64,000 nucleotides of DNA from Basidiobolus ranarum. Taxonomy: Eukaryota. Under the pieces are notes generated by a model. It saw only the letters and a list, made by a program, of their open reading frames with translations, was not told where the DNA came from and searched no databases. The translations under genes were made by a program, and so were the position numbers. How positions within the stretch are numbered: position 1 is the stretch's first letter; every line of letters starts with the position of its first letter. Shown piece by piece: positions 37,153-54,524 of the stretch. The DNA lies in contig JASJQH010006879.1 in the NCBI GenBank assembly GCA_040143965.1, positions 1-64,000 on the forward strand, read 5' to 3'.

Positions 37153-38517
37153 ATGTTTAAACCAAGTGCAGCGCTTCTTTTTTTGTTTACTCTTAACCTA
37201 CTACACAGAGAAATCATTGCAGCCAACAATGACGGTAATGTTCCTTGATATGATCTATAATTCAGTCTAGTTTCTAATTGGATTTAAATCTGTAGCATGC
37301 AATGCCCAATGTATTGGATCCTCTGACACAAACTGTATCAATAATTGCCAAGGTTATTATATTTACTATGCCTTAATTTCCCAGGTAATTTAGACTAACA
37401 ATGAAATATACAATCTTTAGCTCAAACTTCACTAAACTGTGCGAAAGAATGTAACGACCCTGTTCCAAGTGTTCAAGCTACCTGTATTAAGCGTTGCTTT
37501 GAAGACAACTCTCAAGATCAGAATCCAAATACTGTTTCATCCGCCCCAGAATCTTACATAACTGTGGTATTAACATCCAATATTCCTGTGGAAGCAACAA
37601 AAACACTTGGTCCTTTAAGTATCCTTCCAGCTGTAAGTGGAGAGGTATCCATTCAAACCATCAACCCTGCAAGTGTGCCATCAGCAACGAGTTATGCCAG
37701 CACCCAAACAATAACCCAGAGCATCTCCTCTGCTTCTTACGATGCAACAGTTACAGCAACCCAAACAGTTGCTCCTAGTATTAGTGGGAACGGTGGCGGT
37801 AATGGCTCCATTAATACCAATACGAATACGAATACTGAAGAATCGTCAACAACGGCTTTAGTAGCACCAATACCCACGAACAATAATCCTCCAGATCAAG
37901 GTCAAAATCCATTTGGAACTGGAGTATTTAGTACATTTATATTTCCAAGTGGAAACGGTGGTGGTGCGGGAATCGCACCCACTCCTGTGCCAATAATTAC
38001 TGATCAGCCACAAATACCTACCATTGACGCTACAAATATTCCAACTGATCCTCTTCCACCTAACCAACCAAACCCCACAAATGCGCCAGCCAATCCACCG
38101 ACTAACCAACCCTCAAATATCCCAAATAATCAGCCTAACCCAGTAACAAACGTTCCGACGAACTCTCCTAACCCCAACGCTAACGCACCTAGCAATATAC
38201 CAACTCCTGATCAAACTGTTCCTCCACAGTCGCCTATACAATCAACAGTGGATCGAGCCCCAAGTCAAATTAACACTCCAGTAAATACACCTACTGGTCA
38301 GAATAACAACTCTGGGGAAGGAAATACTCCATCACCTACAGAAATTCATACAAGTGATACGCCACAAACTTCATTCCTTAACCCAGCTTCAGCGTCAACT
38401 GCAGGAAATATCCGACCATCAGTAGCAATGAATTCAGCTGCCACCAATACCAGAATCACAATTCTAACCATTTGTGTTAGTCTCTTATGGATGTATACCA
38501 CACTTCATTATCAGTAA
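37153..38517 (+). CDS. Secreted, probably GPI-anchored mucin-like protein with an N-terminal Cys-rich helical module
   Basis: Signal peptide, CxxxC repeats (CNAQC..CINNC..CAKEC..CIKRC), a long S/T/P/N-rich stalk and a hydrophobic C-terminus. Two 5' introns. Confidence 0.75.
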
Positions 38518-38578
38518 TAATAGAATGTGTCTTTATTTAAAATTCCAATGTGGTCAACTAAGTTATTTATCATCATGA

Positions 38579-39070
38579 TTATATCAACAATATCGTAACA
38601 AATAAAAAACATACAGAAACAATACTCCTTTCGAAGGTGATACTTGCATCAGAGCTACTTAAACCTACGCTTGGTCGTAGGTCTCCCGCCGTACTGACTG
38701 TCACAGTTAGCGAAGGAACATCCGTAACTACGGTCCCAGCCAGAGAAGAAGTTGCTCTTCCAATCGTAGAGGTGCCATCACCAGTTGTGGAATCTGGGAT
38801 GGTAGTAGTTTCCCGACCGGCAGGGGCATTTGTGGTGGTAGATATATCAGAGGCCTGGGTTTTAGTAACTTCTTGGGTATGAGTTTTGCTTCCTTTTCCT
38901 TTGCCCTTCGTAGTTTTGGGTTTCTCTGAGAACAATGTTGCCATTTGTGCCACGGGAAGGGTCGATGTAAAGACAATGGTAGTCAGACCAGAGACTTGAG
39001 ATGTTACTGGATCATTTTGCGCACTGATGAAGGATATTCCTAACAATGTAAGAAGAAGAGAGAGCTTCAT
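38579..39070 (-). CDS. Small S/T-rich, probably GPI-anchored protein
   Basis: Signal peptide MKLSLLLTLLGISFISA, a T-rich body, small residues SSSD, then a hydrophobic tail. Confidence 0.8.
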   Translation of the reverse strand: MKLSLLLTLLGISFISAQNDPVTSQVSGLTTIVFTSTLPVAQMATLFSEKPKTTKGKGKGSKTHTQEVTKTQASDISTTTNAPAGRETTTIPDSTTGDGTSTIGRATSSLAGTVVTDVPSLTVTVSTAGDLRPSVGLSSSDASITFERSIVSVCFLFVTILLI

Positions 39071-39725
39071 TATTCAGCAACAGTGAATCAATAGTAACGC
39101 GTTAGAGTAGGAACCAAAACATATTTAAGTATTGTGTTCACAGTGACGATTCAGCATTTGTTACGAATCGATGGCAAAAATAGCATTCTATTCTGCCAAT
39201 AATGAGATCGGAAGACAAGGTAGAAAGAGGAGACATTGAAATAGACGAAAGTGTGGGTCACTTCAAGCCTATATTGGCAACGTTTAAAACGGTCTATTTT
39301 TCGATCACGCCTGTCGATATAGGCCAATCGTTGCCAGTTACTCAGGGATATTCCCACACTTTGGTCATAATAATAGATTGTTGTATCGGTTTCTATTTCA
39401 GATTTTTATTAACGCTGGGGGAAATCGTCGGAGAAATTGACATTACATTCTTAACCAGGCTAGTTGCATTATTAACATTTTATCCAGAATTAGCTTCCAT
39501 CGAAATGAGGGCCTGAGTTTCATGGCCATTTAGCCTTTTGGAGTACAAATGAATTCTGTCTGTACTCTTTTTTTTTGTACAAACAAATCGGACCCATTTG
39601 TGCGATCAAATATTTGGAAAATTGGTGCCTTATTGAGTTCGAATATTCTGGGTCCAAATTTTTCTATTACTTGGAAGCCTTTTTAACCTATTATCAGTCA
39701 TTCGAAGTCTGAGAATTCCTACGTT

Positions 39726-45142: not shown

Positions 45143-45794
45143 ATGGTGGTCCTAAATAACAACTCCGAAATGGTGATACCAATGCAAACTCTAAGTAGTA
45201 TACCTAGGGATTTTAATACTCAAAACGAATCCTCTTGTCTCGCTGTCTGCTCCGTTCTTCGTACTAGCACGTGTCACAAAGAAAACTATTATTATAGCCT
45301 GGGTAACCGGGCATCGTGGTGTTTTTGATGTTCCTTCCGTTACTTCGTCTGATGGTGACGGAAGGAAAGTAGAGATCGGACTTGCTTCCAAGGCTACTGG
45401 TGGATTAGTTGCAGCAACGAATTTCGCCCATAAATTACTACATTTGCCTTCAAGCTCGTTTCGTAAAATTGACGCGGTATTAGCCATCTCTTCACGTGGA
45501 GTAGAGAATACCAATACTAATGAATGGCTGGGATTTATCACTGAGAATACTTTATTTTTAAGTCCACCAAATTCAGCTGGCTGGGCGGAAAATGGATTTC
45601 GTGAATCGTTAATGTCAATTTTAGAATTAGCTGATACTATATTCAATTGTGAAAAGTTGATCATATGCATGCCAAAGAGGAATTTGGATACTCCATCTCT
45701 ATTACGCGCCTTCATGTATATAGGGTTCGAATTAATCAACCCATCGGTGTATAATCAACAACCCGAATACCTTCTTCTAGGTTACGAGCTTTAG
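45143..45794 (+). CDS. OAZ1: Ornithine decarboxylase antizyme, decoded via +1 programmed ribosomal frameshift
   Basis: ORF1 runs from ATG 45143 to TGG TGT TTT TGA (stop 45326-45328). The +1 frame starting GAT at 45327 is open to 45794 and encodes FRESLMSILELA..CEKLIICM..LLRAFMYIGFELINP..LLLGYEL. Confidence 0.95.
45331..45381 (+). promoter_or_regulatory. Predicted H-type RNA pseudoknot acting as 3' frameshift stimulator
   Basis: Stem 1: 45331-45343 TTCCTTCCGTTAC pairs with 45355-45367 GTGACGGAAGGAA. Stem 2: 45347-45353 GTCTGAT pairs with 45375-45381 ATCGGAC. Confidence 0.7.
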
Positions 45795-46257: not shown

Positions 46258-49200
46258 TTATAGATCACTCATGTCAGTTAATTCATTTTGAATCTGTCGA
46301 TGGATGAAGCACAAGTAATCTACATAGGACATATTATCGTTATTCTTATCTTCCACCATAAGGTTAGAGAATTCCAACTCCGCTTGATCCATTTGATGTC
46401 GTACTATTTGTAAGTTTGGATAACGTACTTTCTCTTGTTGTAATACTTTCATTAATGTACGTATTTGATGAGAGGTTGGGTTATCGAGTTCCGGCAATTC
46501 CCCTACTTTAGGGTTGATTTCTTGTAATGTACTGACTCCGAAGACTTGTTCTAAAAATTCTTGCGAGATTTGATTGCCCACCCAAAGCATCAAGGTTAAA
46601 CTATTATCGACCAAGTAGGCTCCAGTAAGATCTAGTCGTGCATAAGAGTCTCGAATCATAGGTGGCATACATATAATATCATGCTCATTTGGAACGCATG
46701 TGTTTTCGGGAAGGGTATGAAGTGGAATAAGTCGAGGATATAGAAGTGGGATCGACTGCGAGACACCAACACTATTTAAAAAGCTCATGAAAGCTCTACG
46801 TGAATCGATGGAAATGTCTACCCCATTTCTTAACGCTCTAGATTTGAGTATCGTAAGGGCATAAAGTGGAAATAGTTTAAGCGCTTCTGGTAATATCAAT
46901 TGTCCTGGGGAGGTAGAGGAAGCACAGTGTTTACGATAAGCTGCTAATATGTGAACACATTTTTCGGTCAGCTTTTCCTTGATAACTCTTAATGGAGACG
47001 ATAGACTTTGAGCGATTGCTTGTTTGGATAATAGATTGATTGTAGCATCCATTTCAGCATATCTGAACATGTTACCCATTAGTGTAGTGACGGGTACACT
47101 TAGATTGTGCAAACGAATTCTTCTTTGTCCAGTAGACGTAGTGTACAATAAAGCACATTGGAATGTGGCATCCGTTTTTTCATCAACTTTAGAGTCGTGC
47201 TTGAGTAAAACTGCAATCCCTTTGTCACTATCCAATCCGCCAAATTCAACATCCGTGGCATTTCTCATATAGAAATTACCAAAATGATCGTCCAAACTAA
47301 ATCCATTAGAACAACGAACTCTCATAATACCATTAAATCCAAACTTTCGAGTCACATTATGTTGAAGCTCACGAGTAAATTTCATTCCTTCCTTCTGTGG
47401 GTCGAAATTCGAATAGAAATGAATGTCACCACCCGTTAAACTAGCTAAGGTTCCAATCGTTGCAACATCTACGTAGGAATTTGGAAACAAGAACATGTCA
47501 ACGCTGATACCAGACTCGACCATATCTGTAGCGAGGGTTTTGTAGAAGGTTTCTTGAGGAGAATAAAGGGCATTTTCCTTATCAGTTCCAATAATTTTAA
47601 CATCATCTCTATTCTTAAGAGAACCAGGTCCAAATATTGGTAAGGTCGTGTGGAATACAAATACTTTTCCACCAGCGTCTTTCTATCAATTTAGTATTAA
47701 ATTACGTTAAATTATGTCAAGAGACCAAAAGTGAATTCTAGCAACACTAACCAATGCCATATAAGCAGATTGCATCGCCGCGCCAAGCACTGGTTCTACT
47801 ATACGGTTGTTAGCAAACATAGTAGGTAAACTCTCTAGCAAACTTTCGATAATATCTCTATAGAAATCATTTGTTCAAACAGATACATATTAGTCCATGA
47901 AAAGCACACAAATATACAGAGTAAATAAACTCGTCCACTGACCTAGACTCAAGGGGATCAACAAAGAATCCTTCATTTAAAGGTACAAACATATCAAACA
48001 CATCAGGAACGACCATCATCTGAGCTTGCTCTAAATTCGACTGAAAAATAGTTTAAAAGCCAAATTCTTATGCTAATATTAACAGATCAAAGTTTCTTAC
48101 CGAAAGGTTGTAAAAATGAACGCTTCTATCATAGGTCATGATACCCACTCTAATCCCTGGCTCTATTCCTTTGTCTGAGTAGATAGCTTCACGAACTGCT
48201 TGAATACACGAGTGCAACATTCCGCTTTGAATAGAATTCCACGATACGTCAATTGCAAATATAAACGAGGCGGGAACAGGTGGACGATTACAATAATCCT
48301 ATTGTATGCCACGAATAAGTTAATATAACATGTTTGCCTCAATCCAGGATTCACTGATAACTTTATATTAGATACCTTGGTCGCAACAAATTCAACACTT
48401 CCAAACCTCAACTCTGGCCTCGTCTCAATATCCAAACGACGGCCATTCATATCCAAATTACAAAAGTATTCTTCAGGAACTAATAAAATATCAGAATCAA
48501 TAAAAGACAGACCAAAAACCTTTTAAGGTGAACTATTTCCACTTAATCTTACCTTCATTTGCAAATTGACAGAGATTACAAACGAACTTTCTACCACCAT
48601 CGACAAATGTAACAAAGGGATTAATATAAGCTTGACAACGATTGCAACGAATAGGTCCACTCTCTCCGAAATCGACCAATTCAAGTGGTGCCTAGATTGA
48701 TGTACGACAGATAATGGATCAGTTTAAAGTACTCGTTAATAAAAGCAGATACAACATACCTCATCATTACGTAGCTCTGCCAAAGGCTGTACAATCATAC
48801 CTAAAGGAAGATGGGAGTTTTGCAACAAGTCTGTCGTCGCTGGAACATTGTACATGGTCATACGCATGAATCTTGGATTAGAACAACCTATATCAGCAAA
48901 ATTTCAAAGGATTAGTCAATGGAGATGTCGAAATAAAAATGCAACCTTTTTCAAACCTTCATCAATGGCTTTGAAATTACTGCTTGCCAGAGGAATACTT
49001 GTTCTCGAATAAGTCATAAATGGAGCGTCAACAAAATTCTTCTGATTTTGCTCTTGCACCGTAATTGGAGATGGAATTTGATCAGGGTCGATACGATTTC
49101 TAGGAGGATTTTCCATAGCAGGTCTACCAACAGAAGCTAGGGGCGGTTGGTTAGGAGGTCGCATCATAGATTGTGGTTGTTGCTGTGGTTGTAAGGGCAT

Positions 49201-50178: not shown

Positions 50179-51255
50179 TCAAAATTGAATTTGTATGCGA
50201 GATGAAGTTTACTACTTTGTGGATATATTTATATGTTGGGTAAATATTTGGTAGGTTCTTACAAAGATTTAAATATTCAATAGAGTTTAATAGCAAGTTA
50301 AGATGCACTGGATTCTCCTAAGATTGAGGTTCTCTCTGTTATCTTACTGTTCGAGTTGAAGGAGTTTGGATTTGACTTTCATATCTACGTATCATGAATA
50401 CGCAGCTTAGAAATGCAATCATGAGTGACTGGAAAGATCAGTGAGTGATGATAAATCAAACTTAATCACATTCCTTCCAAGTTGTATTAATTAAGCTCGA
50501 TCGTAAGTACATTGACAACAGAATAATAATCAGCAATTTTTGATGGCATTTATTTACTTGTAAATGTCGTGTTGTTAAAAAGTAGCGAATTAGTTTTATA
50601 TCTACCAATAACTTCTCGCCACCTTCTAACAATCATTATATTATATATTGATAGGCCTGCCCTCACCCGCACACAAGCAATTCTCCAAAAACAATCAAGG
50701 TTATCAAATAAAGTGTTCTCGCTTGGAGGGCCTTTCCCCGCAGTATCTTATGCAGCCTTCATTTAGCAAGCGACACTAAGTTCGGCAAATAGCAGTCTCA
50801 GTTCCCATTTATTGCAATGGAAGTGTCAGTTCCCACATACCCAGGGTTTTACGTAAGAGAGTAAACAGAGTGGTAGTTATTCACATCGCTTTTGATTAGA
50901 TTTAAATCAGGTACGCTATTCTCACACTAGAAATGCCACAGAACGTACCAGATCAAAAGCTAACAATAGGCCAAGTAACATTATACGAACCAAGGTAAAA
51001 GGGCCAAGCTATCAAGCCACTATGGAAATGTGAGCGATGAGAGCATTGTTTTCTAAAATAGGTATGTTGAACGTTGTTTCAAATTGAGGTCTCACGAACG
51101 TCAAACAACCCGACAGTTATAGTAAGCATACTGATTGTCATACCGACGAGTCTTTTTTTCTTCTCACCGGGTAGAAGGACGTAGGCTTCAGTCAAGTATA
51201 AAAGATACGTCTCATCCTAACAACACTAACATCATCAAGTCGAAAATACGAAACA

Positions 51256-52755
51256 ATGGGAGTCAGCAACGATACAACCACTCAAACTCTTCAATTATCC
51301 AATGGCAAGTCCATTCAAATGAACACTAATTTGTTCATTAATGGTGAATTCGTCGCTTCCCAAAGTGGCAAGACTTTTGAAACCATAAATCCTGTTACTG
51401 AGAAGGCCATCTGCGAAGTTGCTGAAGCCGATGATAAGGACATTGACATCGCTGTTAAAGCCGCTAGTACTGCCTTCTTCGATGTATGGGCAAAAACCAC
51501 TGGCCCTGAGCGTGGACGTTTACTCTACAAGCTTGCCGAGTTAATGGAGCAAAACGTCGAAGAGTTAGCCGCTCTTGAATCTCTTGATAACGGTAAAACT
51601 GTTGCTGACGCCAAAGCATCTGATATCCGTCTTGCAGTTGAATGTTATCGCTACTACGCCGGTTGGGCTGATAAGATTCACGGCAAAGTTATTCAAACTG
51701 CTAACCCTGAACAATTTTGCTACACCCGTCATGAACCAATCGGTGTCGTCGGATGTATTATTCCTTGGAACTTCCCACTTTTAATGCAATCTTGGAAGCT
51801 TGGTCCCGCTCTTGCCACTGGTAACACTGTGGTTATGAAGCTCGCTGAGCAAACCCCTCTATCGGGTTTATACGTTGCCCAACTAATCAAGGAAGCTGGG
51901 TTCCCTGCTGGTGTTGTTAATATTGTTAACGGTTTTGGTAAAGTTGCTGGTGCCGCTTTGGCTTCTCACAAGGACGTTCATAAGGTTGCATTCACCGGTT
52001 CTACTATTACCGGACGTGCCATCATGAAGGCAGCCGCTGATAGTAACATCAAGAAGATCTCCTTGGAATTGGGTGGCAAGAGTCCTAACATTATCTTCGC
52101 TGATGCTGATATTGACAAAGCTGTCCAATGGGCTAGTACCGGTATCTTCTTTAACCATGGACAAACCTGTTGTGCCGGTTCCAGAATCTACGTTCAAGAA
52201 GATGCCTATGAAGAATTCTTAGAGAAGTTCAAGAAGAAGGCCTCTTCTATCAAGCTTGGTGATCCATTCCATCCTGAAACCACTCAAGGACCTTTGGTAT
52301 CTAAACTTCAATTTGACCGTGTTATGAGCTACATTGAGGACGGTAAAAAGGAGGGAGCTACTTGTGAATTAGGAGGTAGCAGATGGGGTAAAGTTGGTTA
52401 TTTCGTTGAACCTACAATCTTCACTGATGTCCGTGAAGATATGAAGATCATGAAGGAAGAGATCTTCGGTCCTGTGGTTGCTATCACTACATTCAAGGAC
52501 GAGAAGGAAGTAATTGAAAAAGCTCATTGTACCGAATATGGTCTAGCTGCAGCTGTCTTCACCAAGGATGTCTCTAAGGCCATTAGAGTTTCCAATGACC
52601 TCCAAGCTGGTACCGTATGGGTCAATTGCTACAACTCTCTTGATGCCAGTACACCATTTGGTGGCTATAAGGAATCCGGTATTGGTCGTGAATTGGGCAA
52701 ATACGCTTTAAGCTTGTACACTCAAGTAAAATCTGTCAAGATCAATCTTGCATAG
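51256..52755 (+). CDS. NAD(P)+-dependent aldehyde dehydrogenase (ALDH1/2 class), intronless
   Basis: IIPWNFP, FTGST, LELGGKSP, FNHGQTCCAG and EEIFGPV. Confidence 0.96.
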   Translation: MGVSNDTTTQTLQLSNGKSIQMNTNLFINGEFVASQSGKTFETINPVTEKAICEVAEADDKDIDIAVKAASTAFFDVWAKTTGPERGRLLYKLAELMEQNVEELAALESLDNGKTVADAKASDIRLAVECYRYYAGWADKIHGKVIQTANPEQFCYTRHEPIGVVGCIIPWNFPLLMQSWKLGPALATGNTVVMKLAEQTPLSGLYVAQLIKEAGFPAGVVNIVNGFGKVAGAALASHKDVHKVAFTGSTITGRAIMKAAADSNIKKISLELGGKSPNIIFADADIDKAVQWASTGIFFNHGQTCCAGSRIYVQEDAYEEFLEKFKKKASSIKLGDPFHPETTQGPLVSKLQFDRVMSYIEDGKKEGATCELGGSRWGKVGYFVEPTIFTDVREDMKIMKEEIFGPVVAITTFKDEKEVIEKAHCTEYGLAAAVFTKDVSKAIRVSNDLQAGTVWVNCYNSLDASTPFGGYKESGIGRELGKYALSLYTQVKSVKINLA

Positions 52756-53255
52756 ATAGCATCAATTTGCCGCATTGTTTAATGAATATCTCTGAAGATT
52801 ACCTAGTCAGGCGTAATCAATTGTGAATAAATATGGTTTTGTTACAAATCTGTCTTGTCAAATCTTTAGCTGGTGATACGTGCGGTAATACAGCATGGAT
52901 TCAACGTTGTACAAAAACTGAGTTTAACCTGTCACCATCGTTCATCATTTCAACATGCGCTAATGTTCTTGGATATATATCTACAAGTCAATCTATTACC
53001 AAATAGTGAGGTGTTCAAGACATAATAGAATCTCCCTATTGGTGTAGACCTGGATATTTTGTGCATATCTGCTTTCTAATAATGATATTGGTGGTCAAGG
53101 GGTTGATTGGCTTGTTTCGAGATGAATATTGATTTTGTTGGTTTGATATTAGTAAGATTTTAACGAGGTTCAATCCATTTCGAAGATCATTGTGTGTCGA
53201 AGAAAAATGGGACAGAATCGAAATATTTCCTAAAGGTTTTTTCGCTTTCTGTAAG

Positions 53256-54524
53256 ATGAATCTAGTCACAACAAAAAGATGGACTACATTAAGATGCCGT
53301 TTTAACTTGACAGATATTCCAACTTCTTCCAACCGCTCTAAACGCTTTACTTTTCCAACTTATTTTTCCACCACCACCGGTAAAATCCAAACTAATATTG
53401 CTTTAAAAGTTAGTTATTTGGGTTGGGATTATCATGGATTTGCAAGACACGATCCTCTTCCTACTATCGAGGGGAGTTTGTTTACTGCCTTGAAGAAAAC
53501 TGGCTTAATCGAATCCGTCGAACAATCCAAGTATTCTCGCTGTGGTCGCACTGATGCAGGTGTCAGTGCATTTAGTCAAGTAATTGGTCTTGAAGTCAAA
53601 CTGAAATCACATGAAGAGACAGGTCCGAAAATTGTCAGCATGCTCAATTCGAACCTTCCTAAAGATATTCAGGTGATTAGCTGGGCTTACACCAAGCCTA
53701 ATTTCGATGCAAGACACGATTGTATTTCTCGAACCTACAAATATTACTTTCCACGACAAAAATTGAACCTCGACTTGATGAAAGAAGCTGGTCATAAATT
53801 CCTGGGTACCAAAGACTTTAGAAATTTTTGTAAAGTTCGTGGTGCCAAACAATTGACTCAATTTAAACGGACTATATTTCAAGTTTCAGTTGAAGCTTCA
53901 AAAACTTTGGCTCATTTACAGATGCCTGAACGTCAGATTTGCGAACTTACCATATGTGGACGTTCCTTTCTTTGGCATCAGGTACGATGTATGACTGCGA
54001 TATTGTTTCTGGTTGGTCAGGGTTTAGAAGCTCCTAGCATTGTAGATACTTTATTGAATATTGAAGAAACCCCCTCTAAGCCACATTATGAGATGGCTTC
54101 TGAACTTCCTCTGGTGTTATACGATTCAGAGTATCAAAATTTAAACTGGAACACCTCTACCACCCCTGATTTGGTTGCTATGTACTGGTTGCAGCGTCAC
54201 CTGGAGCGTGAGTGGCAACGAAAAATGAATGAGGCCATAATATTAGAAAATCTTATAGATGCACTAGGTCAAACACCGGTCACACCGCCCTCGCTTCAGA
54301 ATACACTTTCTTGGAGTGAATACTGGAACCAAGGAGAAGTCCAAGCGAGAGGTGCGGGAGTTGATGTCATATTGGGAGGTGGAAGTGAGAGTAGAGTTAG
54401 GAAGTATACTCCTCTTACGGAGCGTCAACATGGAATACCTGTTGGTGAGCTCAATAAACAATATTTAGATCGGAAAAAGTTTAAATTAAGTCAAGTATTG
54501 ACCAAATCAAATGAGAACCAATAG
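53256..54524 (+). CDS. PUS3: tRNA pseudouridine 38/39 synthase (TruA family)
   Basis: YLGWDYHGF, SRCGRTDAGVSA, FDARHDC..RTYKY, DFRNFCK and FLWHQVRCM. The first ATG at 53256 gives a basic, presequence-like N-terminus. Confidence 0.88.
   Translation: MNLVTTKRWTTLRCRFNLTDIPTSSNRSKRFTFPTYFSTTTGKIQTNIALKVSYLGWDYHGFARHDPLPTIEGSLFTALKKTGLIESVEQSKYSRCGRTDAGVSAFSQVIGLEVKLKSHEETGPKIVSMLNSNLPKDIQVISWAYTKPNFDARHDCISRTYKYYFPRQKLNLDLMKEAGHKFLGTKDFRNFCKVRGAKQLTQFKRTIFQVSVEASKTLAHLQMPERQICELTICGRSFLWHQVRCMTAILFLVGQGLEAPSIVDTLLNIEETPSKPHYEMASELPLVLYDSEYQNLNWNTSTTPDLVAMYWLQRHLEREWQRKMNEAIILENLIDALGQTPVTPPSLQNTLSWSEYWNQGEVQARGAGVDVILGGGSESRVRKYTPLTERQHGIPVGELNKQYLDRKKFKLSQVLTKSNENQ

Follow-up and report, generated by a model that had tools for sequence, protein, structure and literature searches.

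A split antizyme gene of Basidiobolus with a UUU-UGA frameshift site and a likely compact pseudoknot behind its stop codon

Antizyme inhibits ornithine decarboxylase (ODC) in a feedback loop, and the plus-strand locus at 45143..45794 raises the question of how ribosomes pass from a short first reading frame into the +1 frame carrying the antizyme domain, and whether the RNA directly behind the stop codon folds into a pseudoknot that promotes this shift. The locus lies in a window of 64,000 nucleotides of Basidiobolus ranarum DNA (contig JASJQH010006879.1), the window being the whole stretch that was analyzed. Judged by its sequence, the region encodes ornithine decarboxylase antizyme in two separate frames, and the host is a Basidiobolus fungus. 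ORF2 matches the Pfam family ODC_AZ (PF02100) with an E-value of 3.8e-14 and 53 bits, the curated cut-off being 24.2; it features no early AUG of its own, and its first Met lies inside the ODC_AZ domain. Translation across the +1 shift predicts a transframe antizyme of 216 aa. In a protein comparison, the nearest three proteins are labeled Basidiobolus, with identities of 79, 74, and 56%, and the next matches, at 31–45% identity, belong to Dimargaris, Mortierella, chytrids, Mucorales, Glomeromycota, and Harpellales. The domain match and these nearest proteins bear out an earlier note on this DNA, which had read the locus as an antizyme gene of fungal origin. ORF1 has the short form of +1-frameshift antizymes—about 60 codons, then the shift codon followed by UGA—and the typical size of an antizyme ORF1 is 60 codons (PMC1874602). 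The public gene models P0001, P0002, P0003, and P0113 carry no ORF1 and begin either in the +1 frame or at a Met farther downstream; they are misplaced in frame or start, and the regulation is hence hidden in the annotation. The coordinates of all features are given in Table 1.

Table 1. Coordinates of the features of the antizyme locus, counted from the first letter of the window
Feature	Positions	Strand	Remarks
Antizyme ORF1	45143..45328	+	61 codons and UGA; ATG at 45143, TGA at 45326-45328; C-terminal end ...KENYYYSLGNRASWCF before the stop
Ala-Val dipeptide (LAVC) in ORF1	45242..45247	+	AV in 3/4 paralogs, AI in D
Tyr-Tyr-Tyr-Ser codons (-13 to -10)	45287..45298	+	candidate nascent-peptide stimulator
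Shift site UGG UGU UUU UGA U	45317..45329	+	codons TGG 45317, TGT 45320, TTT 45323, TGA 45326, then T
Antizyme ORF2 (+1 frame)	45327..45794	+	155 codons after the shift; open to TAG 45794
Stem 1, 5' arm	45331..45343	+	from the third base after the stop onward; UUCCU here, UCCCU in animals (PMC1874602)
Loop 1 (3 nt)	45344..45346	+	one position differs in paralog B
Stem 2, 5' strand	45347..45353	+	within the stem 1 loop; invariant in B, X11, X12
Hinge (1 nt, G)	45354..45354	+	can pair with U45344
Stem 1, 3' arm	45355..45367	+	each of the four changes in paralog C has a complementary counterpart in the 5' arm
Loop 3 (7 nt)	45368..45374	+	45369-45371 vary; last three bases GAG kept
Stem 2, 3' strand (predicted)	45375..45381	+	invariant in B, X11, X12; paralog C cannot form the in-register pairing
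ODC_AZ domain in ORF2	~45540-45788	+	PF02100 match

The surroundings of the gene hold several further frames. A 187-codon stop-free antisense frame on the minus strand (45191-45754) overlaps ORF2 and is probably incidental. A convergent Sec24 exon (Pfam) lies at 46258-47682 on the minus strand, and, by eye only, an aldehyde dehydrogenase (51202-52755, plus strand), a TruA-like pseudouridine synthase (53133-54524, plus strand), and two Ser/Thr/Pro-rich secreted-looking proteins (37405-39073) can be recognized.

The end of ORF1 reads letter for letter as the earlier note had given it, and its claim of a +1 shift site holds: the antizyme domain lies in the +1 frame, and UUU-UGA is kept in four of the four antizyme paralogs of the genome. 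The ortholog contigs of runs X7, X11, and X12 carry no indel at the shift site, which, together with the four paralogs, argues against an assembly error. The site had also been called a variant; it is present, but it is no oddity, since UUU-UGA is reported for mushrooms, some nematodes, a flatworm, and protists (PMC1874602, Ivanov and Atkins 2007). Both the gene and its UUU-UGA shift site are of kinds already known. The P-site codon in the +1 frame is again UUU, so that tRNA-Phe could re-pair perfectly, whereas a −2 step offers GUU instead.

The genome contains four antizyme loci: A, in the window (C6879); B (C8934, L004, 77%); C (C8718, L005, 53%); and D (C7110, L007). Their ORF1s comprise 61–62 codons. 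Most fungi have one antizyme gene (PMC1874602), and four copies in one fungal genome are unusual. In the protein tree, the clades A/B and C/D are weakly supported (92/93 and 86/79). The 3' element is full in A, full with one mismatch in B, and consists of stem 1 only in C; in D it is decayed. Paralog D (L006/L007) bears a one-base break of the ORF2 frame at a run of eight G (~2813-2815 of C7110), and a GGT repeat expansion spoils its stem 1; it is a pseudogene or the product of a homopolymer assembly error. Paralog B was recovered again by protein search. Beyond this genome, the search for distant DNA homologues in metagenomes yielded 70 pattern matches, none of which was confirmed, and scans with the shift-site pattern gave 12 viral, at least 117 metagenome, and 55 prokaryote loci; the antizyme profile matched 0 of these 184 loci. 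When the peptide spanning the shift site was used as a query, P0001 was the sole match. Among 171 proteins, a peptide pattern matched 23, and FD-VPS followed by a Gly-rich stretch occurred solely in the Basidiobolus ones and in P0006 of Dimargaris cristalligena, a likeness of peptides that cannot show RNA pairing. FD-VPS is also present in P0113, the gene model of paralog D, which the length filter of the script had excluded. The +1-frame peptide of P0006, GGAFDVPSVSRAGGGG, implies UUU-UGA and, as far as a protein can tell, is compatible with a similar stem 1 and a shorter loop.

Upstream of the stop, the C-terminal end of ORF1, YYYSLGNRASWCF, features the pattern YYYS...W.F. The Tyr-Tyr-Tyr part occurs in four of four paralogs, its codons differing synonymously in C and D. 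The mushroom peptide YYYSTTFSGGP(G/E)WRF shares YYYS/T and W.F with it (PMC1874602) and acts as a polyamine-responsive nascent peptide (PMC4505036). Its middle differs: the spacer measures eight residues in Agaricomycetes and six here, two fewer, and TTFSGGP does not occur here (PMC4505036, PMC1874602). The Ala-Val dipeptide of ORF1 recalls the invariant Ala-Val of the Agaricomycete ORF1 (PMC4505036), a likeness by sequence for which homology is only a candidate explanation. Aromatic motifs derived from ORF1 (KYFY, YVY, YCY) were also seen in the antizyme gene models P0004, P0005, P0030, P0032, and P0126, including those of Dimargaris and Mortierella, and the tyrosine-rich ORF1 motif may be far older than mushrooms. 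Neither the four paralogs nor the mushroom-like peptide featured in the earlier note.

Behind the stop, the 13-bp stem 1 that had been proposed from the window is present as described: 13 of 13 pairs form, one of them G-U (45341/45357), after a spacer of 2 nt, and one U-G pair (45344/45354) could extend it. The stability of the hairpin corresponds to z = −5.6 and was reached by 0 of 200 shuffles, and all 13 pairs arise in 0.02–0.04% of 200,000 random synonymous recodings of the same peptide. In an alignment of paralogs A, B, and C, 36 of 39 cells are paired; seven pairs never vary, four are changed on both sides in C, and two mismatch only in C, the distant paralog thus keeping 11 of 13. One pair reads U-A in A, passes through an intermediate U-G in B, and is C-G in C; another is G-C in A, an A-C mismatch in B, and A-U in C. 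All four changes in the 3' arm of C face a changed partner (p=0.021), and several stem 1 changes in C alter the protein with pairing kept. Third codon positions in stem 1 are variable in 0 of 8 cases, compared with 25 of 34 downstream (B or X11; Fisher p=0.0002). The ortholog of paralog C in X7/X11 matches C in 29 of 30 bases of the hairpin stretch, the one change lying in the loop (by eye). The compensatory changes at four pairs in paralog C are what the earlier note had proposed to look for in this stem. Stem 1 is very probably a real RNA helix and appears to be older than the split between A/B and C/D.

Stem 2 would form by pairing of the stem 1 loop with the stretch behind loop 3. It comprises seven of seven pairs with one G-U (45350/45378), and with helices of 13 and 7 bp and loops of 3, 1, and 7 nt, the element of 51 nt has an H-type geometry, all as first described. 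At thresholds that were set after seeing the element, no second arrangement of two such helices occurs on the plus or the minus strand of the 64-kb window. For comparison, the X11 contig spans 45232-45506 with 38 differing letters, of which 31 are listed, and the X12 contig spans 45219-45443 with 30, of which 20 are listed, the rest presumably lying near the contig ends. X7 repeats the letters of X11 in two pieces, the coverage of run X6 ends at 45315, before the stems, and among the runs listed for this sequence none is recorded as RNA, X12 being RNA as a guess. Between 45315 and 45390, X11 and X12 differ from the window, among the listed differences, only at 45369-45371, all in loop 3, and no indels or joints occur. 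Paralog B differs from A at 45329, 45339, 45346 (loop 1), 45367, 45369-45370 (loop 3), and from 45383 onward: stem 2 is unchanged, and divergence sets in at the first third position after it. Synonymous changes between A and B affect 0 of 13 codons inside the element and 53 of 99 outside. Within the element, 2 of 40 paired and 4 of 11 unpaired sites are variable (p=0.015), and for stem 2, no third codon position varies (0/5 vs 25/34 downstream in B or X11; Fisher p=0.0035). The Basidiobolus meristosporus protein P0001 differs from A over the 19 residues of the element solely at the loop-3 codon. Since the stem coordinates had been set by the earlier note before any comparison, this conservation is an out-of-sample test of the predicted stems, and the invariance of stem 2 in B, X11, and X12 supports the helix within this close clade.

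The stimulator could also be the stem 1 hairpin alone, with stem 2 a complementarity that arose by chance and persisted through constraint on the protein and the general conservation around the site. Covariation is found in stem 1, and no compensatory change was seen in stem 2 among A, B, X11, and X12, four related sequences; two changes in paralog C that had been counted as compensatory were rejected as an artefact of the gapped alignment. Paralog C, whose X7/X11 ortholog has nearly the same hairpin, keeps stem 1, and stem 2 is not present there in register; paralog D has lost most of the structure. Stem-1-only offshoots have been proposed for Priapulus and Rhodnius (PMC1874602), a state that paralog C resembles. 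A crossing helix at least as strong as stem 2 arises in 1.5% (native loop, random downstream) or 3.6% (shuffled) of 4,000 draws each, one of at least seven pairs in 8–15% of draws, and all seven stem 2 pairs in 1.3–2.8% of synonymous recodings; the support against chance is much weaker for stem 2 than for stem 1. The 3' arm of stem 2 taken alone has 0 of 2 variable third positions (vs 25/34; p=0.09, not significant), and three of the five conserved third positions of stem 2 belong to the hairpin loop, where some other constraint could have preserved them. Invariance is also seen in neighboring stretches, for example 45287-45304. The contigs of X11 and X12 were found via words in common with the window, a procedure biased toward contigs having one conserved stretch; it favors the 54-nt identical stretch and not the separate 19-nt one with the 3' arm of stem 2. 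A loop 3 of 7 nt is short for a stem of 13 bp. In crude energies without coaxial stacking, the pseudoknot, at −23.9 kcal/mol, ties with the hairpin; over a longer stretch, the best nested fold beats it by about 4.6 kcal/mol. The competing nested helix of that region (45368-45372 with 45394-45398) is built on positions found to differ in B, X11, and X12. The idea that stem 2 stabilizes the half-unwound structure over the hairpin is unsupported by these energies. What speaks against a lone hairpin is that conservation tracks the predicted stems: loops 1 and 3 vary, B diverges right after stem 2, and the loops are variable at 4 of 11 positions and stem 2 at 0 of 14 (p=0.026). A hairpin acting alone is judged rather unlikely, and folding of the element as a pseudoknot is considered fairly probable. 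Of the test that the earlier note had suggested for its fungal pseudoknot, covariation in both stems, stem 1 shows the covariation, and stem 2 shows conservation in the close clade; because stem 2 has no covarying pairs and cannot form in register in C, the pseudoknot is called likely here. Paralog C itself (L005, minus strand) offers another possible crossing helix of seven pairs, located some 16-22 and 70-76 nt downstream of the stop (−11.3 kcal/mol), which is predicted to span a loop 3 of 30 nt and is not kept in D.

Two further readings concern the function of the element and the frameshift itself. The structure could be real and not raise frameshifting at all, instead dampening it, pacing ribosomes, or protecting the mRNA, with the shift arising from the 5' peptide and the weak stop. 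The 3' structure of Coprinopsis has a weaker effect than the 5' peptide (PMC4505036), and the YYYS...W.F peptide is present here; however, the element begins at the third base after the stop, just as a tested mammalian stimulator does (PMC1874602), and paralog C changes amino acids where pairing is kept, which makes such another role improbable. A 70-nt intron from GT 45303 to AG 45372 would join ORF1 to ORF2 in frame and need no frameshift. Its donor, a branch-like CUGAU (CTGAT) in the stem 2 strand, and its acceptor are present in the window and in paralog B. The A of the acceptor, at 45371, is nevertheless C in the X7, X11, and X12 contigs, with no joints among the listed differences; paralogs C and D lack this intron, C showing three unrelated chance candidates; and the supposed intron contains the conserved WCF-stop site and the conserved stem 1, so that splicing is a very improbable account of the locus.

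The favored reading is a +1 slip at UUU-UGA whose rate is raised by the 51-nt H-type pseudoknot, probably in a polyamine-dependent manner, and it is given a probability of roughly 55%. Ribosomes would pause on UGA and slip by +1, both steps being likely. By inference from the antizyme family, slow termination at UGA-U would allow peptidyl-tRNA-Phe to leave UUU and pair anew with the overlapping UUU of the +1 frame, upon which GAU would enter the A site (PMC1874602, PMC5009743). Polyamines would favor the slip, and the 216-aa antizyme would inhibit ODC as polyamines rise, again as in the family. Stimulation by the 3' structure is predicted by analogy with vertebrate antizyme 1: it may act as an obstacle or as a set-up signal, its lower part probably being unwound at the shift site. 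With a structure this close to the stop, the lower part has to be unwound before decoding of the site (Atkins et al. 2016), and such nearness hence leaves several modes of action. The YYYS...W.F nascent peptide is a plausible second, polyamine-sensing input, by analogy with mushrooms.

Among known systems, the vertebrate class I pseudoknot of antizyme 1 and 2 (RF00381) is similar in that the +1 shift occurs at the last ORF1 codon before UGA and that the structure begins about 3 nt after the stop with a pyrimidine-rich start, fits within 60 nt (51 nt here), and has a 1-nt hinge (PMC1874602). The differences are the shift codon, UCC there and UUU here, the fungal host, and the predicted nature of the present element. 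The Rfam model Antizyme_FSE (RF00381) gave no match to the element at E<=10 and 0 matches in the genome, with 67 of 6503 candidates scored. In position, size, and hinge, the element would work like class I, but the Rfam model does not assign it to the family. Invertebrate classes IIa and IIb likewise carry a long stem 1 near the stop—13 bp in Priapulus—but can exceed 90 nt with a loop 1 of >35 nt, compared with 51 nt and 3 nt here (PMC1874602), a likeness judged by description. The Agaricomycete cassette (Coprinopsis cinerea) has UUU-UGA, YYYS...W.F, and the upstream Ala-Val in common with this locus, whereas the 3' element of Basidiomycota consists of two stacked stem-loops that lie behind AAAU and start 17 nt after the stop, an arrangement that differs from the one found here (PMC4505036, PMC1874602). 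Cryptococcus neoformans, of a different phylum from Basidiobolus, is a further fungus with a proposed 3' pseudoknot in its antizyme mRNA; this one follows a GUU-UGA site, spans a 101-nt region, and is called ambiguous by its authors (PMC1874602).

In the text of the 2007 survey drawn on here, fungal 3' elements appear as stem-loops, an undefined region in S. pombe, and the ambiguous Cryptococcus pseudoknot (PMC1874602). The alignment figures of this survey may show zygomycete 3' elements as well. A literature search, with subscription literature and book chapters outside its scope, found no paper on antizyme in Basidiobolus or on antizyme frameshifting in Zoopagomycota, and, judged by titles and the opening lines of abstracts, none on the present element. 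The locus represents a known recoding device whose fungal 3' structure is probably new, and lineage-specific 3' stimulators are already expected in the field. A more far-reaching and tentative view, somewhat short of an even chance, is that the element represents a third class of +1-stimulating pseudoknot, distinguished by its very compact form and the first in fungi to be well defined, joined to a YYYS sensor, with the four paralogs tuning the output. If this is true, one cassette would unite animal-style and mushroom-style stimulators, and the paralogs would form a natural series of pseudoknot, pseudoknot, hairpin only, and decayed element. A fungal pseudoknot of 51 nt with hairpin-only and decayed paralogs would, in addition, be a small test system for stem 2. 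For the antizyme family, it would mean either repeated invention of the proximal-pseudoknot design or its deep ancestry beyond animals.
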